The notes under the pieces were generated by a model that saw nothing but the letters and a program-made list of their open reading frames with translations, did no database searches and was not told the origin of the DNA. Shown piece after piece: positions 2,982 through 54,786 of a stretch of DNA of 54,786 nucleotides. Each line of letters starts with the position of its first letter. The stretch's first letter is position 1. The DNA comes from a virus (lineage: Duplodnaviria; Caudoviricetes). Made by a program: the position numbers and the translations under genes. The DNA is taken from positions 1 through 54,786 of IMG/VR virus record IMGVR_UViG_3300036826_000065, one strand, 5' to 3'.

Positions 2982-5900
2982 TTACGGCTCCGTCTCATAG
3001 CAAATGATGCCGCCGATAATACGAACGTTCACGTCAGCGTTGTTGATCTTCAACGCCACTACAGCCCCGCTAGCTACGGTGAGGCCTGTGTGATTGCCGT
3101 AGCTGGTGACACCGCCACCGATTATCCCAAAATCCCCGCCATACACATGGTTATTGGTCTGCACCGTTCTGAGCCATTTGCCGCCGCTGTCAGCGGACAA
3201 AATGCCGTTGATATTGATCTGCATGCAGGAGACGTTTCCAAGGTTGTCCACCTGGAAGTTGCTGCCGCCGCTGTACTGGAAGATAATGCCGGTTCCAGGC
3301 GCACCAGAGCACTGCACCGACCGGAATGTCACGTCGTTGGTGGTTCCCACCGGCTGGCCGATGGAGAGTGTCACCGTGTTGGAGCCGTTGCTGGCGGTCA
3401 CGCCAGTGCTTCCAGCAATCGAGATCGCGGGACCGCTCATGCCGTTCACGCTGGTCACGCCCGCGCCGGTCGTCGCGAAGTTGACCGTGCCCCAGCCGGT
3501 GCCGGTGTAGTAGTAATACGTGCTGCCGGACTGGTAGGCCAAGCCGCCCACGCCCGTGCCGGGAATCGGCAGGTTCGCACTGCCGAAGCCTCCCGTGCTC
3601 GTCATCATGAAGGCCGCGCCGCCATGACTGTCAGCCGCCCTGAAGTTGCCGTTCTCCAGATACACGCCGACCGACCTCGCATTCGTCTGGTCGTCATTCG
3701 GGGGGTTCGGATTCTCTCCGGTTACCTGCCCGCGCACGTGCAACTGGCCGGTGTTATGCAGCCACATTTTGGCGTAGCGCGAGGATTGGGTATTTGGCGT
3801 CACGTTGAATTGTATGTCGGTGCCCCAGGCCGAACCGCTCCAGGCCTCGCTGGTGACGAACGTGATGGATGCGCTCGCGGCTGAGATGAAGCCGCCGCTA
3901 TGGGCGCCGCGCCCGCCTATGGACATGAGCGTGAGGCCGCTCGGCAGATTCTGAAAGACGCCACTCCCTGGCAACCCGCCGGTATAGTATGCGCGGCGCC
4001 CGATAAAGCCTGGTACTCGGGTAGGATCGTTGGCTGAGTCGTAGCAATCCACGAGCAGATTGTTGGTCGCGTTGGAGGTCACGAATAAGCCGGTAACGCC
4101 GGTCAGGCCGGAGCCCAGGTCGGGCGTGAAGGCCGGGAAGACGCCGATCCGCCCCAGGGCGACGATGCCGCCGACCGTCTGAATGGAGTTGTAGTTGGTG
4201 GCGACGTCCACGTACAGCCCGCCGTTGCTCTGGATGAAGCCCTGTTCGCACTCGATGCCGACCACGCTGTTGGACGTGCCCTTGACGTGCAGGAATGTTT
4301 GCGGAGCGGGATTGTTAATGCCAACGTAGCCGTTGTACTGAATTCGCATTCGCTCGGTGCGAGTTGTGCCTCCAGCATATGTGTAGAAGGCGAGGCCGGA
4401 GGTCTGGCCACTCGCCGTCTCCCAGATTGCACTTAGACCCGGTGCAGCGGCGTAATAACTGGCGTTGTAATAAATCGGATCGCCCAAGTATATCGAGGCC
4501 GCAATCTTCGCGCTAGATGAAGTGTTGGCCGTAGCGTATGCGCCTATATCGCCCCTGACGGATAGGGTATTCCACGGCGCATCACCAATGCCCACGCTCT
4601 CATAAAACCGGGCGTAGGTCGACCGGAGTTCCAGCGACGTGGCATTGGAGCCGCCGCCTGATCCGTCGCCCACGAGGAAGGAGAGGGCTCCAGTGACGTA
4701 GTAGTTGGGAGAGGCGGATACGGTCACCGCCGTGCAAAGGATCGCCGCGCCGCCGTTGCCGGAACCGTACCAGTTGACGCCGCCCAGGATATCGCCGCTT
4801 TGGATCTTAGTCGGAGCCGCGAGAGTGCCCCGATGCCTGGAGAACGCTATGTACGGGTAGAAGTAACTGGTGTCGTTCGCATAGGTCATCGAGATCTGAT
4901 TCGTAACATCGCTCGCGATGCGGAGGATGCCAGGATTCAGACTGAGGATCTTATTGGTGTAATCCCAGGCGAATCCGGCCTCTCCGGTGATCCCAGTTCC
5001 CGTCTTGTAATACTGGATGGCCTGATCCGTCCCCGCGCCGCCGATGCTGGCGAGCGTGTTGAAGTTCAGCGTCTTCCAGCCCGCTGGCAGCGTTGGCGAG
5101 GGGGTATCATCCCAGTAGTAGTAAGTCGAGTTCCCTTGGAAAGCGAAGACGCCGTAGCCGCCCCCGGGCGGATTGAGGTCCGCTGTCGAGGCGTGGGCCT
5201 TCATGTGGACGTTCTGCGCGGTGACAAAGCCGGAAGCCGCGTTGATCCAGGCGTTGCAGCAGAGATGGGTTGTCAGCACCACCTTCGCCGCCGGGGGCTG
5301 GTTGGCACTGGAAGCCCAAAGTAGCACGTCGGTCCAGCCATCGGGGAATGAAGCGTTGAGCAGTGGCTGCGGGAAATTGATGCCGCCCTGCAACCTGGGC
5401 AGGTCGATGTAGCCACCTTTGTAAGGCGAGATGGAACTGGAAATGATGCCCACTCCATTGCAATACACGCCGCCAGTGGTGGCCTGGATCGCTTGGTAGC
5501 TGGGGGCTGGAGTGTAGAAGCCGTCCTCGCTGTGGATGTAGCCAATGGAAGCGTAAATCGACGGTGAACCAGAGACACCCATCACCTGGAGCGGCCAAGT
5601 GGGGGCCGTCTTGATGCCGACCTTACCACCGAAGTAGCTGGGGGCATCGCCAGTGTTGTACATAGCCCAGCTATCATTGGCAGTGGAGGATTGTTGGGTG
5701 AAAATCGCGTAGTTATGCTGGCCCGAACTTAGGGCCTCCATCCTGACCCCATAGAGATTGGTGATCGTAGTGGCGGCGGGATTAGATCCTATAAAACAGA
5801 ACCAGTTCCCAATCGTTGAGGTCGCGCCGCCGCCGTAGGCCCCGCCATCACACCAGAAGCCCATCACGTTATTGATCGTGCCGGTCGCCCCGGCGGTATA

Positions 5901-12274: not shown

Positions 12275-15200
12275 GCGGCTCCAGCAATGCGCTGGACTGC
12301 CGTGTCCTGTTCGTTCCCGTCACCGCCGCCGTTGTGTTCGCCGCGCCGATAGCGCCTGGGTTGCTGGCGATGGCGTTCACGACTCGGCCTTCCAGCAATG
12401 CGTTCGCTTGCCCAGGATTCAATTGCAGATACAGTGGCGGCTGCGGCGTGAGCGCTTGCGCGTACTGAGTCGTGGTCGCACCCGTGTATGGGCTCGCGAC
12501 CAATTGCCCACTGCTGTAGACCGGCTGCAATTGCAAGCCCCCGGTCGCACTCTGCGCGAAGGTCGCCGGATACATCGGTCGCGGGAGTGCAGCGTGCGTC
12601 TGGCCGGATGAGATGGCGTAAGCGCGGACGATCTCCTGCACTTCGGTTGAGTAGATGCCAGTGCTGATTTTGCCGCCGTACTTCTGGTTGATGATATCCG
12701 CGATACTTTGCAACACGCCCTGGTCTGGAATGATCACGTGATACGCCTGGAAGATTCTGTCGCGGACCTGCGAGAGGAAACCTGGGACAAGCATGCGGAT
12801 GGTTCCGGCAACCGCTCCGGCGGCTGCGCCGACAGCGGCTCCGATCAATGTGCCCACGCCGGGAATGATGGAGCCGATGGTTGCGCCCAGCATTGCTCCA
12901 CCCAGAATTGAGGAGCCCAGGCCGGTCACGCCTCCGCGCTTCATGCCGAATGCGATCAGCCCCGCGCCGGTTCCGGCGATGGCGCCCTTGCCCATTCCGA
13001 AGCCCAGGCCGGGAAGATTCTTGGCGATCTGCGAGCCAACGCTCGCGCCCAGCAGTGCGCCGCCGATGGCCGTCTGCGTCAACTGCCCCGCTCCGGTCTT
13101 GGCGCCCAGTCCGCCCATGATTAACGCGCCGCCCGCCAGGGCCATGATGTTAGCCATGCCGGTGGATTTCAGGATGGCGCCAGCCTTCTGCCAGATCGTC
13201 GCTTGCGACCAATCGACACCGCCGATTGGCTTCCCAATGTCGAAGCTGCCCTTGATCCCAGACCATACCTTCTTCAGCGAGCCCAGGAAGCCGCCTAGGC
13301 GCGACGTGCGTGCCCCCAGGATGGATGGTCCCGCTGAAGTCGCGTAGACCGATGGCAACGACCGTGTCGGCAGGTTCGCGATCTGATCGTTCGCCGTATA
13401 GATACCGCTGGTGCTCAGAAGCGACGGCAACGCCCGTGTCGGTAGATCGCCAAACGTTTCCTCGATCATGCGCTGGGCGTCACCTTGGGCGGCGCCGCCG
13501 ATGCCCCCAGGTCCCGCGAGCATACCTGGACCGCCGGGAGTGTAGCCGCCCGCGAGCATTTGCCGATTCGCCGCAGCCGCCAGCCCGCTAGCCGCCATAG
13601 CCAAGTCTTGCCCTGCCTGGATCAGGAGGACGGCGCTGAAGTTCAGGTTAGTGCTGGCATTCTCCAGCCCTTGAAAGGCCGGTATGGGCGCCTTGCTGCC
13701 CTCAAAGTAAGGCCTTCGCCCCAGCAGCCGATCCAGCCAGGACCCGGTAAACTCCACATGACCGCCGCCGAATGTCTCTTGCAGAGTTCCGGCGATCCGC
13801 GACGTGACGAAACCTTTCAGCGCATTGGTGAACGCGCCCTTGATGGCGTTACCGATGTTCTGCCAGACCGAATGCGTGCGATCCGTCAGCGCATTCCAGA
13901 ACTGATCAGTGAAGGAGAGCAGATCGCCGTACATGTCGCGCTGGCTTTGCAGGATCGCGTCATCGGTCGCTTTCCACGCCGCAAAACGCGCCTCCTGGGT
14001 ACGCTGACTGCTCTGAATATCCAGCGCTTCGTTCTGGCGCCGTGTCGTGGACCGCATTTCATCTACGACCGTTTCCGCATCTTTGTGCTTGGCCGCATAC
14101 TCCTCCAGGTATGCGTTGTTGGCGTCCTTCTGAATTTGGGTCTGCTTTTTGATGAACTCGATTTGTTCATCTTGAATGTTCTGGATCTGCTGCACCCGCT
14201 CTTGCAGGTTTCGGGGTCGCTGAAGCTCCAGCTTCGCCACGTTATAAGCGGACGCCCGCGCCAGACTCTGAATAGTGAGGTTGGCCTCCTCCTCGATGCG
14301 CTTCTTGGCGAACTCCAGCATGAGAGCCTGGGACTCTCGTTCTGTATCTACGCGATGTCTGGCGATGATGCGGTCATATCGGGCGGCGATATCGGCTTTG
14401 TCCTGGTTGCCTTCGGCGTAGATCCTGACGCTCTCGGCGTTCATTTCCTTGTATGCCTGGGCGATTTGGGCATTGGTCATCTTGCTGGTATCAAGCTCGA
14501 TCAGCCTCGCGTTGAATGCGCCTTCCGCAGCCGCAGCAGTGCGAACATCAATCTTGTCCTGCTCCACTTGCTTGACGGCGTTCAGATCGTCTTCATATGC
14601 CTGGGCCCTCGCTTCCGCGATCTTCTGCTTACCGGCGAATGTTTCGTCGCCGTAAATCAGTTCGGCCTGAGAGATCGCCAATTGCCGACCGGCGCGGGCC
14701 ATCTCCTCCGCGTTCTTGAGAGCTTCCTTTTTTCGTTCCTCCTCCAGCTTTTTCAACTCGGTATCGATCCTGATACCCAGCCTTATGCGGTATTGCGCGA
14801 TGGCCTCATCGTTTTTTTCTACCTTGCTGACGTCAGCCTGGAATTCCAGCGGCAACGCCTGGATAGGCTCCTTGCCGACTCGCGCCAGTTCTGCTCGCGC
14901 TTCCAATACGGCGCGTTTGGCCTCCTCCACCTGTTGCTTCATCTTTTCGGAGTTGAACCTCGCCCGCAGTTCGCGCTGGAGCCGTTCCTCCTCCGTCTCT
15001 CCGGCTGGCGCCGCCGCACCCGCCCCGGCTGGCGCTTTGGCTCTTTCGCGCCGTATCTCCTCGCGAGCTTGCGCCGCCGCACTCTCGCCATATACGCCGG
15101 TAACGAACGAGCCGATGAGTCCGGTAACGAGGCCTTGCCCAGGTCCTCCTCCCTGGCCGAAGCCCATCATCGCGCCGGTCTTCGCCGCTTCCCTGGCCGC

Positions 15201-27947: not shown

Positions 27948-30900
27948 TCACTCCGTGAAATCCGTTCTTGCGCTGAAGCTCTGGAACTGCGGCATCGGCG
28001 TCGTGCGGAGCTTCGGCGCGGCCACCGGCTTCCTGGCGCTCGCGGGTTCGTTCTTGCGTTCGGTCGAGGTCAGCCGGTCTTGGAGATCCTGCCAGCGGGC
28101 CTCGTTCCAGCTTTCAAACCGCATGCTCGCCGCCGCCGCACGTGCGTAGATCCGGCAATTCCCGGCGACGAAGACTTGCCCATTGCGTCGGCAGATCAGC
28201 GTCCCGTTGGGGACCGTCGCGCAATATACGGTTCCTTGATGCTGGACCGTGCGACCGATAAATCCACGCTGTCCATTGGCGCCGCCATCTAGATACGCCC
28301 GCTTTACATGGGAATTCTCATGTACATGGAATTGATCGCGGGTATTGTCTCCGGTGCGTCCCCTGATTTCGTAAGGCCGCGATTCCCTGCGATGAGATCT
28401 GGGCGCACTCCCCAGCTTGAGAAAAAGTTCCTGGTAGTCGTCGGCTAACTTCTCGCAGACGGTCGCGATCACTCTACAGTCGCCGGATTGAAGCCAGCCA
28501 TCGCCCAGGACTGCCGTCTGAAGAAACGCCTCGATGACGTCCCGTGACGACTGCTTGATCCACGACGGGATGCGGCGGCTTTCCTGCAATCGCCCCCAGG
28601 GCGCCACCTCATCGAATAACTGCTTGGAGGTCGCGGTGAACTTATGGACTCCGTCGTTCCAACTAAATCGCCAGGGAAGCCTGTCCAGTAATCGGGCGAT
28701 GGCTTCAACGTTCTCCTTCTTGGTTTGGCAAATGCTGACCAGCCGCCGCACCGACCCCTCGTGCTCATTGATCGCCGCCGAACCCTCTGTAATCCACCAG
28801 CCATAGAACCGCGCCAGATCCATCGCATCAACATGTCGCTCCGGCTCGATCTCCATGCCGGAGTCACTCTTATGGCTCGCAGGAATCGTAATCTGTGGTG
28901 CGCCACGCTCCAGCCATTGGCCGGTTAACTTGATCTGATGCCGCTGGGTTAATTCGCGGGCGAGCGTGACCTGGGGACCGACTACACCATTGCGCGAGGG
29001 AAGATAAGTGACCATGCGGTGAGCAGGCGTCGTGAGGATATCGATGCGCCTCCCCTGGAGATGCACCATGTCGCCGCTGTACTGGCGAATGATCAGGTCG
29101 GATGGCCGCTGGAATTCGATGGCGTCCGTCTCCAATTCCACGGTCGCGACCTTCTGGCCGGAAAGATCGATGAATCGCTTCCATCCCTCGTCGGTCAGCA
29201 CCTCTGTCGAGGCGTCGAAGCAATCGAGAGCCTCGTTCCGCTCGCGGTGCTTTTCCCACTGGGTCTTCTTCATGCCGCGCACCGTCGATGTAACCAACCG
29301 CTCCGCTGTTAGCTGTTCAAAGTACTCGCGTGAGTAATTGGGGAAGTGGCAGAAGCCGACCGGCCAGGATTCGCCCGCGCTCAGGTCCGGCGTGCGGCTC
29401 CGCAGCCAGCGGTAGAGTTCCTCCTTCGCGATGTCCACGTTGACCGGCCAGAGCCGGATGCCGTACTTGAGCTTGCTGCCATGGGGGCCGACCTCCACCA
29501 TCGAGGCCGACCCCACCAAGGACGCGGGCCTGTTACTCCCCTTAACCCCCATCACGCGCATCGGGCTCATGCGCCGCACGTAGTCGTAAACCGCCATCGT
29601 GTTGAAGCCGGTGTCGATGGCGAGCTTGGCGATCCGGGTCGGCTGACCGTACTCGGTCGGAATGTCCTCGTCCAAGAGCTTGGTGATGTTCTCCCAGACC
29701 TGCGGCTGCGACGTGTCGCCGTCGAACACGCGATAGTCCACAGACCAGCTATGCCGGTCGCGACCCCAGGCGACGATCTCGCATTCCAGCCGCCGCGCCT
29801 GGACGTCCACGCCAGCGGTGACCAGGATGCCGCCCTCCGGCACCACGCCCAGCATGTAATCCTCGCGCCGCTCATAGAGCCGGTCAGCGTCCGGCGCCTC
29901 CGCGACGTCCAGCCAGGGCAAGCCCAGGATGGTATTAACGAAGATCTGCTGCTTCTGCGGGTCTTCCCCGGCCTCTTCGCGTTTGCGGGCGACGTCCTCC
30001 CAGGAGAGCCAGCCGACCGGCGAGTAGAGCGACGACAGGTGGTAGCCGTGCGTGCGCGGGTTCTCCGCGCCGTCCGGCCTCCACTCGCCACGCGGAAGCA
30101 TGTACGCCTTGTGGTGGTTCGCCAGTCCCTCGCCGCAGCCCGCGCAGTGATAGCGGGCCGTCTCCGGCTTGCCGTGCTGCCAGCGGAGTTGGGCGAACAC
30201 CAGGACCTGCTTCTCGCCGCAGTGCGGACAGGGCACCCAGTATTGCCGCTTGTCGCTGTCCTCGTAGAAGCGCTCGATGCGCGAGTGTCCGCTGACGGTC
30301 GGCGTCGAAACGATGAAGATCTTCCGGCGTGCGAAGTTCGTCGTGCGGGCGATGGCGAGTCCGCATGGTTCGCCCTCGCCTTCGACGTCGCCTTTATAGC
30401 CATCGACCTCATCGAGGAAGAGATACCGCGCCGACATACTGCGGAGTCCCTTGGCTGAGTTAGCCCCGGTCATTACCAGTAACCCGCCAGGGAATTCCTT
30501 ACTAAGTAGCGTGTTGCTGCTATCTCTAGATCTGGAGTCTTTCACCCGCGTGCGCAGCACGACGGAGTCTTCTATGAGCGGGCCGATGCGTTGCTTACTG
30601 TTGCGCCGCGCCATCTCGATGGTCGGTTGCACCACGAGCATGGGACCGGGCGCCATGTGGATGACGAAGCCGACCCAGTTATTCCCAGCTTCCGTCCCCC
30701 CGATTTGGGCCCCCTTCTGGAACACGACCGTCTCGACGCGGGAAGCCGGGGAGAGATCGTCCATGATGGCGCGGAGAAACGGCGCACGGGAAGTGCGCCA
30801 CGGTCCCGGCTCCGGCGACGAACGCGCCGATAGCTGACGGAACTGATCCGCCCATTGACTGATCGTGAACGCGGGGTCAGGTCTGGCTCCGTCGCGGGCT

Positions 30901-32419: not shown

Positions 32420-33780
32420 CGATTCACCCATAAGGTCAACAAAATAATAAGTTACGACACTTAACCTGCTATAATGAGGTTTAAGGTGGTAGTAAGTAGC
32501 CGCCGAACCCGCCCAGGCCGACCGGCCAGACCCCCAGGAAAATCCCCGAAGCGGAAAAGAGCCCTCGCCAAACATTGTCATTTGTGGGGAGGTGTACGCA
32601 CCCATGCAGGCGCGAAGCCGCCGGGGAGCCACCGCCTTCGGTAGGACCCGCAAACCGCTGAAAACAAAGGAGATTCCGGTTTTAAACCGCGAATACACAA
32701 ACAGAAAGTGTACCTTTGCGGCGCAAAGCGTTGTAACGCTCGTACACCTCTGATTCCATTGGGTTTAGCTGGGTCAGGTTTGTGGAGCCGTGCGAGTCGG
32801 CGTAATCCATTGAAAACAAAGGGCTAGTCCTGGGCGCATGGTGTCGGCGCATGCCCAGGGCGCACGCGGCGCACGGTTTAAGCCATTGAAAACAAACGGC
32901 TGACAGCCATTACCGCCGCCTATTACCGCCGCTAACCGTGGCGTGCCCAGGGTGCCAAACGCCTATCTTCGGAGCATTATCAACGGTTTAGCAGGAATTT
33001 ATCCCCAGGGCGCAAGTTTTTGGTCGGAATCGGCTGTCGGCACGCCGAAACCGCTATGTAATTCTTTCAAAACTGCGACTGTATCAGACTAGCTTGTCTG
33101 ATATATTGCAGATATCTGAGTCCGAATATGCTGCTTTACCAGGGCGCATGCGGTCGGCACGCCCTGGGCGCATGCTGTCCGATACCTGGGCGGCGCATCC
33201 TGGGCGCCCTGGGCGCACGTGCGGGGTATTCCTGGGCATGCTGGGCACGCCCTGGGACGGCTGACGGTCGGCGCCCTGGGCATGCTCGCCGCTCGCCGAC
33301 CTGGGGACGGTCGGCGCATCCTAAAGGGACGGCTATCGGGCGCCCAGGTCGCGACCTGGGACAAATGGGCTATGGCTATTTATTCACTGGAATGTATATT
33401 TATCCAAACGGCTGTCGGCACGCCCTAATCTCTGCTAGGTTTCTAGCATGTTTTTCCACAGGATACGGGGAGGATAAATTCGCTTTACTTTCACTTCTTT
33501 TCGGTTTTCGTTCGCCTATGGGGAATACCCTGATACCGGGGAGTTTCCTGAGGCGCATCCTAGGGCCTGCAAACGCTCAGGAACCCTATGTCCGTTTGTG
33601 GGATTATCAATAACTTACAGACATACTGCTACAGACTGTAGCACTGCTTTATACAGTGTTTATGCATCCCCTGGGGCGGCGCATCCTGGGCACGCCCTAA
33701 AACACGTTGGGCGCCCTAAGTCTTGCGACCTGGGCGCCCAATGGAATGGTGGGGCTGTAATGAGGTATTGCGGGGTAACC

Positions 33781-48225: not shown

Positions 48226-48562
48226 CGGGAAGGTCGCGGAACCAGAACCGGCGCCCGTCAGCCGACTCGCCGGTCAAGTGCATGCGCAGAATTGGAGATT
48301 GCTTCCCGCGCAGATGTTCACGCAGCCACTGGAGCCCAACGACAATGAAGCCGTGCGGGCTGCGGGAGTCCACCTGGGGCGGCATGGCCGCGACTTCGGT
48401 CTTGGAGAGTACATCCGCCATTCCGTCCCAGGGATTGATCTCATCGGTCATTTGATTTCTCCTCGCCTCGCCATGCCCCTCCGCGCCCAACCGGGCCTCG
48501 CCGGGTAGATCATTCGTCGGCCTCCAGAATCGATATGCCGCCAGCTTGCTTCGCCGCCTCAT
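48197..48562 (-). CDS. hypothetical protein (true start probably internal, MTDEIN)
   Basis: GGAG SD before the internal ATG. Confidence 0.45.
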   Translation of the reverse strand: MRRRSKLAAYRFWRPTNDLPGEARLGAEGHGEARRNQMTDEINPWDGMADVLSKTEVAAMPPQVDSRSPHGFIVVGLQWLREHLRGKQSPILRMHLTGESADGRRFWFRDLPGVRQELGME

Positions 48563-49577: not shown

Positions 49578-49680
49578 TGATCTCCAGGTAGCGCGGGAAA
49601 AGCCGAATGATGAGAGGCCGGTCGCGATGCTTTGCCGCCGTCTCGCGAATTACTGAGCTTGAGCTTTCAAGCTTGGTCAT
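49477..49680 (-). CDS. hypothetical protein
   Basis: GAGGAG SD. Confidence 0.55.
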   Translation of the reverse strand: MTKLESSSSVIRETAAKHRDRPLIIRLFPRYLEISEKRKRDVYLVAYDVLFDFARKLQFKRGGDGKA

Positions 49681-49827
49681 AACTCCTCAGTCGCGCCGCA
49701 GGTTTGACACACATATCCATAAAACACCATCCATTCCGAATAGCCGTCACAACTGACGCCCGATGGATACTCAACTTCGGCGTAAGTCATCGGGGCGCCG
49801 CATGAGCAAACCTTCTCGGGTTGATCA

Positions 49828-50304
49828 TTCTCGCCTTGCATCGCACTGCCCCACCTCACCATGCCCTGCCCCACCTCGCCAGACATTGCCTCGCCATGCC
49901 TAGCCATGTTGAGGAAAAAAACCTCGCCTTACCTTACCTGACCGTGCCCGACCCTACCCGACCCTACCCGACCAGACCTCACCCGACACAGCCTCGCCAT
50001 GCCCCGCCGCTGAAAAAAAAGAATGAGTGCAGCCTCGCCATGCCTCGCCGTGCCGGACCTCACCTCGCCATACCGGGCCACGCCTTAACTCGCCTAGCCC
50101 CGCCATACTTTAAATCCTCGCCTCGCCATGCCTGACCAAGCCAAACCGCGCACGGCCTCACCATGCCGGACCCCGCCCAGCCACAAGATGAAAATATGAG
50201 TGCAACCTCGCCTTACCTTGCCGCGCCGCGCCACTCCCCGCCACTCCATGCATTGGCCCACCACGCGATGCCACGCCAAGCCTGACACCGCCCTGCCTCA
50301 CCAC
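49828..50304 (-). repeat. five (NN-GGY)n pentamer arrays, putative guide RNAs (49828-49907, 49921-50010, 50032-50106, 50115-50184, 50205-50304)
   Basis: Strict 5-nt periodicity (RCC-NN on plus), 14-20 units each, separated by AT-rich linkers. Confidence 0.85.
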
Positions 50305-50309
50305 GATCT

Positions 50310-50990
50310 CTACGCGGCTGTCATCGTCTTGCCGGACAGCAAGCCAGCCAGCCGCTCCAAAGCCTTGCGAACATCGTCGTTCGCGAGATCCATGAGCCCG
50401 CTCTCTAGGAGATCGATCACCTGACGGATCATGAACGTCTGGGTCGCGCCGCCCAGGCGTTTATTCACCTCGACCTGCTCGCCGGTCAGCGTCATTCCGC
50501 TCATGTGGGCGGCGGCGCGTTTCAGCGGAATCGGCTGCGGCTTCTTTTGCCCCGGCACATTCAATTCGCCCAGCCGGTTGAGCCGAAGCTCGCCCAGTTT
50601 CATGACCGTCACGCCCAGGGCGGCGGCGGTCTGATCAACCGTCAGTTCCAGCTTCTGCCCAATCAACTGACAGCGGATGCGGTCAATGTTCGTCAGTTTG
50701 CGCCCATGATCCGCGTTCAGGCGCATCGCATCCATGAATAGCTCGCCATCGGTCTTATAGTTCCGTGTCACCACCTCGACCGGATATTCCTTGCCGTGCA
50801 GCGACAGATACAGTTTGTACCGATGGAAGCCGTCCACGATCCGCCGCGATTTCGCGCAGATGATAATCGGCGGGAATGTTCTCCCGGCCTTCAGCGATTG
50901 CTTCATTTCCGCGACGTGGTACATATCTACCGACTCTCGCGGATAAACGTCATAGTCCAAAACTAAGTCGCTCAATTTATAAGTCTTCAT
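50310..50990 (-). CDS. ParB/Srx N-terminal domain protein
   Basis: FPPIII...IVDGFHRY and N..HG..L motifs. Confidence 0.8.
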   Translation of the reverse strand: MKTYKLSDLVLDYDVYPRESVDMYHVAEMKQSLKAGRTFPPIIICAKSRRIVDGFHRYKLYLSLHGKEYPVEVVTRNYKTDGELFMDAMRLNADHGRKLTNIDRIRCQLIGQKLELTVDQTAAALGVTVMKLGELRLNRLGELNVPGQKKPQPIPLKRAAAHMSGMTLTGEQVEVNKRLGGATQTFMIRQVIDLLESGLMDLANDDVRKALERLAGLLSGKTMTAA

Positions 50991-50991
50991 A

Positions 50992-51332
50992 ACCTCGCCC
51001 TGCACCGCCAAACCTCACCATGCCTCGCCGTACCCAACCCGGCCAGACCCCGCCAAGCCAAGCATCACCCCGCACGGCCCTGCCACGCCCCGCTGCAAAA
51101 GAGTTCCACAAATCTTATAAGTGCAACCGCGCCATGCCTTGCCGAACCGCGCCAGGCCGTGCCTGACCCGGCCAGACCTCGCCTGACCAGACCCGGCCAA
51201 GCCTCGATCAGGAGGAGCAGGGCGGGAAGCAGCCCGCCCTGTCGAAGTATGTGTCAGAGTTGTCCTCGCCTTGCCTCGCGCCGCCCAGCCCGGCCAGACC
51301 TTGCCGCGCCAGGCCGCGCACGGCCTCGCCTT
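50992..51332 (-). repeat. three (NN-GGY)n arrays (50992-51091, 51126-51205, 51263-51332)
   Basis: Same periodicity; hairpin at 51218-51241 in a linker. Confidence 0.85.
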
Positions 51333-51907
51333 CAGTTCTTAGAAGTCTCCAGAAGTCGTAGACTGAAACGTCCGAATGGTCCTCCCTTCTCCGGTCGGTA
51401 ATCACCGATGCCGACCATGCGACCGGCGAGGTTGCCAATCTCCTCGATCATCTTCAGGTTCTCCACGATGGTGTCGTCCACCTCCAGGTTCACGACCGCT
51501 CGCCAGTTTTCGATCTTTGGGCGCGAGCGCATGATGCCGATGGTCTTGTTGAGGACCACGCGCCGGGTATCCACCGTGTAGCTCTTGCCGCTCATCGGCT
51601 TGCCCTTGGCGTCCAAGATCTGGAAGTATTCGTCCAACGGGAAGATGGTCGCCTTCAGAACTCCCAGCGCACTGAGCTTGCCGATGCGACGGCCTTTGCC
51701 GCCGCTGGCAATCGCCGCCTTCACGGCGACTGTGGGAAAGACGAAGTTGCCCTTCTCATCCAGGTAACGACCGGCTGCGGCTTCGTCCTCCGGCTCCGGC
51801 ACCTTCTTGGTGTCCAGCTTGCCGTGCTTACTGCCGCTCATTGCGGAAGGGTTGTGCATCAGAATCGGCGTCGTGCCGACCAGTTCGACTTTAATATTCG
51901 TTGACAT
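51332..51907 (-). CDS. RAMP/Cas7-like RNA-binding protein (putative guide-RNA effector)
   Basis: N-terminal VELVGTTPILMH, FP..AVKAAI, and C-terminal Gly-rich loop GIGDYRPEKGGPFGRF; flanked by arrays. Confidence 0.65.
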   Translation of the reverse strand: MSTNIKVELVGTTPILMHNPSAMSGSKHGKLDTKKVPEPEDEAAAGRYLDEKGNFVFPTVAVKAAIASGGKGRRIGKLSALGVLKATIFPLDEYFQILDAKGKPMSGKSYTVDTRRVVLNKTIGIMRSRPKIENWRAVVNLEVDDTIVENLKMIEEIGNLAGRMVGIGDYRPEKGGPFGRFSLRLLETSKN

Positions 51908-51941
51908 ACACGTGTCCTCTCAGTTCTCATTGATTGGATTG

Positions 51942-52166
51942 ACCATGCCCCGCCATACCACGCCGAATCACGCCTGACCAAGCCAAACCCAACCGCGCCT
52001 AGCCAAACCCTGCCGGGATGCTATGTCCGGGGTTGCCCAATAGTTTCGGTATTAGGCCCTTGTATTAAGAAACCTCGCCTTGCCATACCATGCAGTGCAT
52101 TGCCATGACCCGCCGGACCTCGCCGGACCAGACCTCGCCTAGCCGTGCCACGCACCGCCATGCCTC
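51942..52166 (-). repeat. two (NN-GGY)n arrays (51942-52016, 52072-52166)
   Basis: Same periodicity. Confidence 0.85.
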
Positions 52167-52533
52167 AACTCTCAGAATCTTCGTCAAGATCTTCCCTGTC
52201 GAATAACTGCCTCTGCAACTCGCCGGGAGTCATCTTCTCGACGCGAATCGGCTTACCACTGCTCGCAACAAAAACAGTCTTTTCGCCAACTGAGGGCTCA
52301 TCGAAAGTAACCCCAATCTCCATCTCCTCCAACTCATAGCCCAGGGCGAGTTTCTGCTGGAGATCGCTGCACGCCTTCTCGGCGGTCAGGATCTCACTGG
52401 CAATCGCGGACGTCATTGCCTTTTTCCGACTGCGCAGTTCATAAATCGCTCCCACGCGAAAAACCAGTTCGTCCTTCATCCGCGACGTCTCTTCGGCGGT
52501 GAACGGTCGCTTCACTTCCTCCGTCATCTTCAT
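52165..52533 (-). CDS. hypothetical phage protein
   Basis: FT.EE...GYE...G...MT..ELQ; GGAGG SD. Confidence 0.7.
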   Translation of the reverse strand: MKMTEEVKRPFTAEETSRMKDELVFRVGAIYELRSRKKAMTSAIASEILTAEKACSDLQQKLALGYELEEMEIGVTFDEPSVGEKTVFVASSGKPIRVEKMTPGELQRQLFDREDLDEDSES

Positions 52534-52546
52534 GAAGTAAGCCTCC

Positions 52547-53518
52547 TTAGTGCGCCCAACTGGGTTGTGGCAAGAACACCTTCTTGCCGGTTTCGGTTTG
52601 CAGCCGTGCGACGAAGATCGCCTTCACCCGGTTGTACGCGGGCGTGCGGTCGCGTTCGGAGATCGTGCGCCCCAGGAGCCAATCGACATAGTCCGCTGTC
52701 GCGCTTACCGACATGAGACATTTCTTGAACGAATCCCTGGTAATCGGCGCCACCTTGCTCGACAGTTCGGGGTGCAGGACTAAGCGCCGGAAAAGCCACA
52801 TGCAGATGATCATGTTGAGCGTTGACCAGAGCCGACCGTACTGCAAGTCGCGCCCCCAGGCGCCCACGGCAAGATTCAGGAATTCGATGAGCGCATCGTA
52901 CTCCTTCGGATCGAGCGTTTCCGCGACCAGGGCGGCGCTTAATGTGGCGCCCGTGCTGGGGACTTCCGACATGCTGCCGCGCCATGCCCTGAGGACCAGC
53001 GACATGCCCACGACCGGCGCCGACTGATTGCGGCGGATGTAATCGTAGCCGACAAAGGGACAATGCGCCCGCAACTTCCGCAGCCCGTCGATGGAGGACT
53101 CCAGCCCGCGCAGGATATCGTCTGGGCGCATGCGGACCAGTTGCGAGTTCAGCCGGACGAACTCCTCGCCCATGTCGGCCATCGAGTTGAAGTAGTGCGT
53201 CCTGACGTCGGTGTAGCCTTCCTTGCAGCCGGAGAGGATGAACGACTCCTTCCTGTGCTGGCCGTCGATCAGATAGATCTCGCCGTCCAGAATCGCCAGC
53301 GTGATGATTCCCGGCCAGACGCCGCCGTCGCGCTTCATCTCTTCGGCCAGGGCGCGGACCTTCTCGTTCTGGCGCACCGGCCTCTGGAACGGCGGCGACT
53401 TCCACTTCTCCAGCAACGTGGGCGTCACCATGATGGTGTCCACGACGGTGCGAGTCTTTTTCTCCACCGGCGTTTGCGGTTTCACGATTTTAAATAGCGC
53501 GGCCAATGGCATGTGCAA
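52547..53518 (-). CDS. DGQHR/ParB-like domain protein
   Basis: FQRP and YLIDGQHR. Confidence 0.75.
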   Translation of the reverse strand: MHMPLAALFKIVKPQTPVEKKTRTVVDTIMVTPTLLEKWKSPPFQRPVRQNEKVRALAEEMKRDGGVWPGIITLAILDGEIYLIDGQHRKESFILSGCKEGYTDVRTHYFNSMADMGEEFVRLNSQLVRMRPDDILRGLESSIDGLRKLRAHCPFVGYDYIRRNQSAPVVGMSLVLRAWRGSMSEVPSTGATLSAALVAETLDPKEYDALIEFLNLAVGAWGRDLQYGRLWSTLNMIICMWLFRRLVLHPELSSKVAPITRDSFKKCLMSVSATADYVDWLLGRTISERDRTPAYNRVKAIFVARLQTETGKKVFLPQPSWAH

Positions 53519-54275
53519 CGTCTCCTTCCTCAGTGGTCATTTCCGCGAGCCGATAAATCTCCTTGGCCTCCGGCGAGTCCAAGAGATGCCAGCCCATTGC
53601 GTCGTAGGGCCTCATCCTTGCGCTCCGCAGGATCATCCGAACGAATTGCCCGTGCCCATGGTTGCTGCGGTCGCTGATCAAGCCGTGCGGTCTGTGGAAG
53701 AGCTTGGGCATCTCCTCCAGCCGGTACAGCCTCCGGTGCGCCTTCTCCGGGTTGGCCTTCAGGTCGCCGCGCATCAGCCGGTAATGGCGCAGGTTCAAAT
53801 TCATGATCAGGTCCATGCGCGGGAAGCGGGCGCAGCACTCGATGATCTCCGCGACCGGAACGCCCGCGCCGGTCCTGCTCCGATACAGCCAGCCGTTCGG
53901 GTCGATCACGATACTGCCGACAGCGTGCGGCGGCATGCCCTTGGCCCATTCCATGAAGTGCCGGTTATCGAGCATCTCCACCCGGCAGTTGGGTCGGCCT
54001 CGCAGCCGCGTCTCAAGCTCGCCCGCGCGGGCGTTATCCAATTCAAAGAACATCGCCTTCCAGCGGCGCAGATGTTTCTGCGCAAGCTCCAAGAAGACCA
54101 GCGGCGTACCGGGGACGCCGTACTCATCGTTCCAACCGGAACCGGCGTTCAAGTCGAAGTGATAGTAAGTATCGCCAGGGTAAAGTATCCGCATGCTCAT
54201 GCTGAACATAGCGGCGATCCGCCGCCCTTTGTCGCAAGTGCTCAGACCTTGCCCTTGACGTCTGCCATCCTGCAT
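53490..54275 (-). CDS. SAM-dependent methyltransferase-like protein (TcmP/GMT-like)
   Basis: GQG.S..., FDLNAGSG, G.P, IDPNG and DLIMN motifs. Confidence 0.6.
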   Translation of the reverse strand: MQDGRRQGQGLSTCDKGRRIAAMFSMSMRILYPGDTYYHFDLNAGSGWNDEYGVPGTPLVFLELAQKHLRRWKAMFFELDNARAGELETRLRGRPNCRVEMLDNRHFMEWAKGMPPHAVGSIVIDPNGWLYRSRTGAGVPVAEIIECCARFPRMDLIMNLNLRHYRLMRGDLKANPEKAHRRLYRLEEMPKLFHRPHGLISDRSNHGHGQFVRMILRSARMRPYDAMGWHLLDSPEAKEIYRLAEMTTEEGDVAHAIGRAI

Positions 54276-54301
54276 AAGTTCGCCAGCTTTCGGTAAGGGA
54301 G

Positions 54302-54659
54302 TTACTCTTTGGGCGGCTCGCCGGTTTCCTGCGCCGCCGACATGACCCGGTCGCGGAGCTTCGGCCTTTCTTTCGCACCGGCCTCCAGTTGCTTCGCGCC
54401 TTCGTCGAGGACTTCTTCCCAGCCGCTGACATCCACGGCTTCGGTGTCCTCCTTCTCGATGACGTTGCGCACCTCAGGCGAGAGCGGAAGCCACTTGGAA
54501 TGGCGGCGGAAAACCGTCTTCTTCGCCATCTCGTCGAAATCGGTCACCCATGGTCCCTGATCCGGCGACTTACTGCGCTTGCGGATCTTCTCGATCTCTG
54601 ACGGGTTCATGACGATGAAATCTTCGCTACCGTCCTTGAATCGCACGTAGGAATAGTAA
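54302..54659 (-). CDS. recT: RecT C-terminal part (joined to 524..1)
   Basis: GPWVTDFDEMAKKTVFRR.SKWLPLS. Confidence 0.9.
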
Positions 54660-54786
54660 GCGACTCGATCCGGCCCGCGATCCTTGGCGTTCGGCGTGTG
54701 CTTTAAGTGCGCCTCGGTTCCGTAGGCATAGCTCCATTCGTCGTTGCTGTAAACCGCATCGGCATGCACATAGCTGACGTCGCCGG

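Follow-up and report, generated by a model that had tools for sequence, protein, structure and literature searches.

The complete virus record IMGVR_UViG_3300036826_000065 (Duplodnaviria; Caudoviricetes), a stretch of 54,786 bp with 60% G+C that was analysed at full length and is called the window below, carries close to its right end, where all genes lie on the - strand, a locus that, judging by its sequence, is one of the VIPR (Viral Interference Programmable Repeat) systems. The first repeat array of this locus begins at the end of a gene encoding a protein of 122 amino acids (aa), and its guide fits the allele of that gene in a related phage without the cassette (contig G001) better than it fits the copy in the window. 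Thus, it is fairly likely that the guide of array 1 serves to silence, in an allele-specific manner, sibling phages whose allele is of the G001 type or closer still, while the carrier is spared by its own diverged copy. The expression of the guide RNA, its binding, the silencing and any competitive benefit are predictions made from the sequence.

In VIPR systems the minimal-RAMP protein Vipr polymerises on vrRNAs that are composed of GGY/NN repeats, and the NN dinucleotides pair with double-stranded DNA, skipping every third base of the target. These systems, first described in preprints of 2026, are mostly phage-borne and silence competing elements (10.64898/2026.04.26.720920; 10.64898/2026.04.26.720927; 10.64898/2026.10.15.759431). 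Further traits of VIPR systems are an accessory vap gene with a DNA-related function, of which the classes vap1-6 have been published, and vrRNAs that co-purify with Vipr and end in an invariable structured tail. Array 1 (52169..52070, - strand) consists of 20 five-base units, and its NN positions read GA AT GG GT AC TA GA CT CC GA CC GG AT AA AC AT AT AA GA TT. The 19 dinucleotides listed for it in an earlier, sequence-only reading of this DNA are exact, and one further unit (TT) is present. The final three units follow the motif GGCAW-GGCGA-GGYTN, which is common to 10 of the 12 arrays of the window, and units 18-20 are therefore probably a handle and not a part of the guide. In three arrays a spacer starting with TGCACT continues after this motif. 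Four array tails were folded, and their stability was no better than that of shuffled sequences (z from -0.10 to +1.08), nor was any match to Rfam found at the gathering score. The end motif directly precedes a start codon twice, at 51011 (ParB-like gene) and at 48451 (a further gene), where it may double as a ribosome-binding site.

The 122-aa protein is represented by two clusters at the 90% level among 5.77 billion proteins, its own and that of a 118-aa protein with 74% identity, and the second member of the latter cluster has an identical patch. The 118-aa homolog is encoded by the 53,525-bp viral contig G001 (locus L001), which was the sole viral locus found; a metagenome collection returned the same contig again (L002) and a species-genome collection only the window's own record (L003). 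Among 401 genomes of the same class, two have a homolog, namely the window's own record and a distant homolog, and the best score of the guide there is 18/34 nucleotides (nt). Contig G001 is rated 100% complete; it is collinear with the window in gene order, and 78% of the window can be aligned with it, at 85.4% identity. Neither a Vipr homolog, even at E <= 10, nor GGYNN arrays were found in it.

At the homologous site of G001 the guide matches in 14 of 20 units, a score that none of 300 permuted guides reached anywhere in this contig (maximum 10). Over the 17 variable units the match amounts to 14/17 units or 29/34 nt (0.85) for G001, and to 10/17 units or 23/34 nt (0.68) for the copy in the window. 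It is confined to the register with one skipped base, since skips of 0, 2 and 3 bases give 20, 22 and 19 of 34 nt and the permutation maximum is 23, and the skipped base is position 3 of the codon. The target patch of G001 (32677-32727) encodes the peptide EIGCTYDLPEIGMKTIF, close to the EIGVTYDLPEPGMKTII predicted in the sequence-only reading. The same reading had asked whether any homolog scores above the self copy, and the sole near homolog does so both in units and in nucleotides. Its proposal that the guide targets the allele of close relatives, while the self copy has diverged or been replaced, is thus supported. Seven of the 17 codons of the self copy disagree with the guide, through amino-acid changes.

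In the published work natural targets were called at a gapless match of at least 80% of the NN positions, with the self contig remaining below 80%, and the available text reports no self hits at that level (10.64898/2026.04.26.720920). With 17 units counted, the G001 site lies above this threshold and the self copy below it. With all 20 units counted, G001 reaches 30/40 = 0.75 (hand count), which is below 0.8, so that this verdict depends on units 18-20 being a handle. For comparison, the functional guide of SUSP1 reads 89.2% of bases on average over its natural targets (10.64898/2026.10.15.759431). The support gained here for NN recognition with a 1-nt skip comes from one guide, array 1 against G001.

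The following mechanism seems the most likely. Array 1 would encode a vrRNA, in which 17 NN dinucleotides read codon positions 1-2 with one base skipped, Vipr protomers would polymerise on it, and the complex would bind the relative-type allele as double-stranded DNA. Because the guide has coding-strand sense, it cannot pair with the mRNA and can pair with the template DNA strand, as the mechanism in print demands. The bound complex might then block transcription of the early operon in a sibling phage, be it co-infecting or resident, and the carrier would escape this block by means of its linked allele, diverged by amino-acid changes. Synonymous changes would give no escape, since the skipped base is the wobble base. 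The same argument, that wobble skipping denies escape by synonymous change, has been made for satellites (10.64898/2026.10.15.759431).

Match of the guide to the gene beside it

In the window the corresponding patch comprises codons 72-90 of the 122-aa gene (52320..52264), which read GAG ATT GGG GTT ACT TTC GAT GAG CCC TCA GTT GGC GAA AAG ACT GTT TTT GTT GCG (EIGVTFDEPSVGEKTVFVA). The match that first drew attention to this gene, 10 of 19 dinucleotides identical to codon positions 1-2 in register, was recovered, and it includes units 1-5 consecutively. This site is the best 1-nt-skip match for guide 1 in the window on both strands. The runner-up, 9/19 at 29604..29659, was dismissed as chance level, because 9.6% of permuted guides reach 9. 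A score of at least 10 anywhere in the window was obtained with permuted-order guides in 15 of 1500 trials, and per nucleotide the self match (17 units) is within the window-wide range of shuffled guides, the maximum of which is 24. Inside the 122-aa gene it was reached by none of 20000 permuted guides when 19 units were used and by 1 of 20000 with 17 units. The other 11 arrays have no notable self match in the window (permutation p >= 0.51 each).

The window-wide self match is thus borderline (1.0% of permuted guides, with 12 arrays tested), which would be compatible with guide 1 being unrelated to the 122-aa gene. Such a coincidence is, however, refuted by three tests, namely the permutations across G001, the restriction of the match to the 1-nt-skip register and the permutations within the 122-aa gene, and we regard it as extremely improbable.

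The sequence-only reading had also counted 11 A/T-ending codons among the 19 of the patch, and the count is correct. In the long open reading frames (ORFs) of the window, which are rich in G+C at the third codon position (GC3), 2.2% of 19-codon windows have 8 or fewer GC-ending codons. The G001 allele dips as well, with 10/19 GC-ending codons in the patch, and the dip in GC3 is therefore not evidence of a replacement limited to the self patch.

The family of the 122-aa protein comprises 188 representatives at E <= 0.001, which are viral, and 15 of 35 aligned members match phrog_12688. The 35 aligned sequences are most strongly conserved at the motif DxPxxGxKxI, with P80, G83 and K85 invariant, and it is this motif that the patch covers. 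The guide was converted to the residues that it permits and slid over 152 family proteins. Two G001-type sequences are compatible with 14 of the 17 units, the next best protein with 11, and the self copy with 10, tied with three homologs of 26-37% identity. Since distant members reach the score of the self copy, the self match can be attributed to family-conserved residues, and it is the G001 allele that is the outlier in guide fit among the family proteins. No Pfam family was found for the 122-aa protein, and seven families were each matched by one of the 35 members, at E >= 0.001. A sequence search of PDB gave no significant match, the best having an E of 0.016 to coiled coils, and the atlas neighbours of the protein are viral hypothetical proteins.

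A similar layout was found in other Vipr loci. In L084:5297-5960 the stop codon of a 197-aa gene, which looks like that of a YqaJ-type nuclease (GSPD motif), is the exact starting point of an array, and this array matches the gene in frame in 10/14 units or 23/28 nt. This value, 0.82, exceeds the published threshold of 0.8 and would count as a self hit. In L024:8988-9134 an array is located 8 nt past the stop codon of a 209-aa gene, and the last codons of this gene match in frame 8 of 16 units, the first five consecutively. The 209-aa gene is DnaA C-terminal-like by eye, and the viral contigs found carry an identical gene. Long open frames are directly followed by an array in 74 cases, and in three of these p is <= 0.005, where about 0.4 such cases would be expected. 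The 177 guides of other Vipr loci were compared with their own 12-kb loci, where partial self matches are not generally in excess: two guides have p <= 0.02 and five p <= 0.05. Within 600 bp there is only a slight local excess (4 at p <= 0.01).

Partially matching guides regulate some CRISPR loci, and by analogy the complex of Vipr and vrRNA 1 might weakly bind its own 122-aa gene as a roadblock, tuning either read-through into the cassette or the expression of the gene. Such autoregulation would agree with an array that begins at the stop codon of the matched gene on the same strand, with a self match far above chance within that gene, and with the recurrence of the layout in L084, L024 and the three significant arrays of 74. 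We nevertheless consider it unlikely. The self match lies inside the window-wide shuffled range and below the 0.8 threshold, the G001 allele fits better, and distant members of the family equal the self copy in fit. In SUSP1, perturbation of GGY or disruption of NN pairing abolished silencing (10.64898/2026.04.26.720920), and the latter also argues against regulation through a partial match.

Insertion of the cassette and search for other targets

The cassette (49806-52198) is the largest segment of the window that does not align with G001, which has about 56 bp in its place. The empty site of G001 is located at approximately 32798-32855, with the target 63-120 bp away, and contigs from soil runs (X6, X8) join 49779 to 52313. 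The 122-aa gene ends exactly at the cassette start, and less than 250 bp separate the self copy from the guide. Over 53500-52540 the window is 93-100% identical to G001. From there to the junction the values are 0.90, 0.75, 0.72, 0.77, 0.55 and 0.57, and beyond the cassette 0.53 along some 50 bp, followed by roughly 0.9. Comparable divergence from G001 occurs elsewhere in the window, e.g. 67.5% identity at 13459-14928, and the gradient is for this reason not diagnostic. At codon positions 1-2 the self and G001 alleles do not differ in codons 1-28 and differ by 29 changes in codons 29-111. The patch, changed at 7/17 codons, is not enriched over the rest of the gene (Fisher p 0.14 and 0.58). The spread of self divergence over codons 29-111 fits a replaced copy better than a locally mutated one.

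A solo mini-array of the window (48502..48463) is inserted between two genes which directly adjoin each other in G001. By its NN dinucleotides it agrees with the opening codons of the downstream gene in 7/8 units for G001 (DPWAGME) and in 5/8 units for the self copy, the latter corresponding to 13/16 nt (hand count). The G001 match falls right at the empty insertion point, but an array this short does not allow firm statistics (permutation p of 0.01 across the genome).

Several observations weigh against array 1 being a guide for the silencing of G001-type siblings. The G001 allele itself mismatches the guide at units 4, 11 and 17. The two alleles differ at seven informative units, at five of which (6, 8, 10, 13 and 16) the guide equals G001, at unit 4 the self copy and at unit 11 neither; in so small a sample, this siding with the relative is suggestive. 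A perfect allele was sought with exact gapped patterns in viral contigs (19 units, units 6-16 and units 1-10) and in metagenome contigs (16 units), and none was found. The other 10 cassette guides have no match above shuffles in the window or in G001, and none of the 11 cassette guides has one in 85 other loci (0.87 Mb). Phages of the G001 type are thus not the general target of the cassette, as the other guides lack a target in G001. The comparison of a carrier with a cassette-free relative covers two pairs, window with G001 and L084 with L089, and the second pair does not repeat the result of the first. The relative L089:961-1545 matches the L084 guide in 10/14 units, like the self copy, and in 21/28 as against 23/28 nt. 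An RNA library (X5) yielded one 151-nt contig on the window, inside the 122-aa gene, and none on the arrays, although coverage gaps prove nothing. Finally, the GGY part is imperfect in 5 of the 20 units of array 1, including unit 1 (GTTGA), which shares bases with the stop codon of the 122-aa gene. Given the effect of GGY perturbation in SUSP1, array 1 could be decaying.

Guide 1 might accordingly be a relic that once matched the allele of an ancestral, unsampled or extinct lineage and is now decaying and inactive, G001 being merely closer to the old allele. The absence of a perfect target from every collection searched and the imperfect units would both agree with this. So would unit 11 (CC, proline), which fits the family consensus PxPGMK and neither known allele and thereby suggests that the exact target is a third allele, as yet unsampled. 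On the other hand, a match of 29/34 is within the range of the natural functional targets of SUSP1, and TGY-type imperfect units are also present elsewhere in the locus (e.g. in 3 of 20 units of the array 51089..50990), so that they are perhaps tolerated. Only two alleles of the 122-aa gene are present in the collections, in which soil phages are thinly sampled. Among the soil runs, the window form was found in four from 2020 and the G001 form in three from 2017. No third allele was found in the contigs of four runs, of which X6-X8 contain only the G001 form, coverage gaps again proving nothing. On balance, an inactive relic appears improbable.

Another explanation could be a homing-like or poison-antidote module, in which the junction-proximal guide would hit the cassette-free flanking allele of sibling phages. 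In a mixed infection, only recombinants that acquire the resistant allele together with the cassette would then escape silencing, and the cassette would spread. The recognition site in G001 does lie near the empty insertion site, the self allele departs from the guide at 7/17 units, and identity to G001 falls towards the junction. The mini-array also matches the G001 allele better at its own insertion point, and the cassette occurs on unrelated backbones, none of the 81 other Vipr loci having the flanking genes of the window. However, no nuclease was identified here and the published action of VIPR is repression, divergence like that at the junction is found elsewhere in the window, the cassette-free relative in the L084/L089 pair has no better match, and the mini-array is short. 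We consider such a module quite unlikely in the present case. The general proposition that VIPR cassettes spread as selfish poison-antidote or homing-like modules, with the resistant allele travelling along with the cassette, is put forward tentatively and is itself rather unlikely. If it were true, the stop-codon layout of L084 and L024 and the junction-matching mini-array would be footprints of one rule, and this rule could explain how cassettes colonise unrelated phage backbones.

Identity and layout of the VIPR locus

The assignment of the locus is based on its vipr gene. A total of 121 Vipr homologs were collected, and a profile of 54 members matches PDB entry 36pp_D, 'SUSP1 Vipr protein', with an E of 3.2e-23; profile positions 3-186 align with chain residues 1-191, i.e. 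over the full length. The protein also matches phrog_4652 (E 1e-20) and shares 26-32% identity with its phage relatives (tblastn). GGYNN arrays are present on the vipr strand in 55 of 81 loci of Vipr relatives and on the opposite strand in none of them. The remaining 26 loci have no called array, and a variant repeat consensus or arrays beyond the fetched flank are possible there. The ParB-like protein matches phrog_1033 (E 7e-10), and its homolog adjoins vipr in 43 of the 81 loci; it has no Pfam match at E <= 0.01, and no nuclease domain was identified. The genes that flank the cassette in the window, including the 122-aa gene, are found in 0/81 of the other Vipr loci. From these frequencies it follows that the cassette consists of the arrays, vipr and the ParB-like gene, while the 122-aa gene is a backbone gene of the phage. 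The window record, as a 54,800-bp contig (L003), is binned in a metagenome-assembled genome (MAG) of Blastocatellia (Acidobacteriota), which hints at the host lineage.

A scan of the window revealed 11 tracts of GGYNN five-base units between 52169 and 49846 on the - strand and none on the + strand. These 11 cassette arrays, all on the gene strand and with 8-20 units each, together with the solo mini-array make up the 12 arrays considered here (Table 1). A further flagged 'array' at 4727-4796 was rejected, as it represents a glycine-rich coding sequence. No sigma-70-like promoters were found in the cassette.

Table 1. Features of the VIPR locus and of the adjoining backbone in the window
Feature	Position	Strand	Basis
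vrRNA array 1, variable guide units 1-17	52085..52169	-	GGYNN tract
Array 1 units 18-20, GGCAA GGCGA GGTTT, probable handle	52070..52084	-	terminal motif in 10/12 arrays
vrRNA array 2, 15 units	51940..52014	-	GGYNN tract
vipr gene, 191 aa, RAMP-type guide-binding protein	51332..51907	-	family profile, phrog_4652
Three vrRNA arrays, vipr to ParB-like gene (region 50990..51330)	51330..51266, 51203..51124, 51089..50990	-	
ParB-like accessory gene, 233 aa, candidate vap	50310..51011	-	phrog_1033
Six vrRNA arrays downstream of ParB-like gene (region 49846..50302)	50302..50258, 50242..50203, 50182..50118, 50104..50030, 50008..49919, 49905..49846	-	
VIPR cassette as indel, 2393 bp	49806..52198	.	no counterpart in G001
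122-aa backbone gene, viral family	52165..52533	-	phrog_12688, family alignment
Self copy of target patch, codons 72-88 (EIGVTFDEPSVGEKTVF)	52270..52320	-	10/17 guide units, 23/34 nt
Solo mini-array, 8 units	48463..48502	-	GGYNN tract between two genes

Upstream of the 122-aa gene, the region 52547-54784 (-) encodes a RecT-family protein (Pfam E 1e-22), a 261-aa ORF without an assigned family and a 323-aa protein in which a DGQHR motif and weak GmrSD_N/ParB-like matches were noted. These genes form an early recombination-type operon, and a roadblock at the 122-aa gene of a sibling phage would fall inside it. At the other end of the cassette, the listed 76-aa ORF of a zinc-ribbon gene (49680-49907, - strand) takes its N-terminus from the last array (MARHGEAMSGEVGQG...), and comparison with G001 suggests that the true start is an ATG near 49835. 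The first 20 or so codons of this gene, including the first CxxC, have diverged from G001.

Comparison with known systems

The locus resembles the SUSP1 and P. fulva type II VIPR systems (10.64898/2026.04.26.720920; 10.64898/2026.04.26.720927), as far as these are described in the available text, in having a Vipr homolog and GGYNN arrays that flank vipr on its strand. The match of guide 1 is likewise read with a 1-nt skip at the wobble position, its predicted target is located in a coding sequence of a competing phage, and there is no self hit at or above 0.8. It differs from them in its distant Vipr and in its ParB-like accessory protein, ParB being absent from the main text of 10.64898/2026.04.26.720920. 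Further differences are the interleaving of the arrays with both genes, the GGCAW-GGCGA-GGYTN end in place of a demonstrable pseudoknot tail, and the soil context, with the bin in a Blastocatellia MAG.

The solo vrRNAs of SUSP1-family phages that target vrRNA or vipr (10.64898/2026.10.15.759431) offer a further parallel. There, too, close relatives are targeted and a lower self match avoids autoimmunity, the wobble-aligned guide lies on a conserved stretch of amino-acid-determining bases, and solo arrays are found outside the main locus. In the present case, by contrast, the carrier has VIPR and the predicted target phage lacks it, the target is a backbone gene and not vipr or vrRNA, and a diverged homolog of the target is kept immediately beside the guide. 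One VIPR preprint states of its targets of the vipr and satellite classes that none is covered by homology of the phage's own.

In what was available of the literature, VIPR itself is already in print, as are guides that fit rivals better than self, the latter for the vrRNA-targeting vrRNAs of SUSP1-like phages. No phage with VIPR that aims at the backbone gene of a sibling without VIPR while keeping the diverged homolog beside its guide was found in the VIPR texts consulted, the supplementary tables of which may hold such cases. That the guide sits beside its target is a possible new twist.

Further systems for comparison are the free-standing homing endonucleases of T-even phages and the transposon RNA-guided nucleases TnpB and IscB, the latter of which act on the site that is free of their element. 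The VIPR cassette resembles them in being located beside a gene whose cassette-free allele would be recognised, in the divergence of the carrier allele at this site and in the raised divergence near the insertion. It is unlike them in that no nuclease is known here and the RNA guide is noncontiguous.

Natural targets are known for few VIPR clades, and the present case would add one for a distant soil-phage type with a ParB-like accessory protein. The 1-nt-skip rule was reproduced independently from sequence data alone. Discrimination between two collinear phages would here be achieved at the level of alleles, the guide reading, within the most conserved motif of the protein, those bases that determine the amino acids. 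If the linkage of a guide-resistant allele to the cassette is general, it suggests how VIPR cassettes may avoid autoimmunity and spread among related phages.

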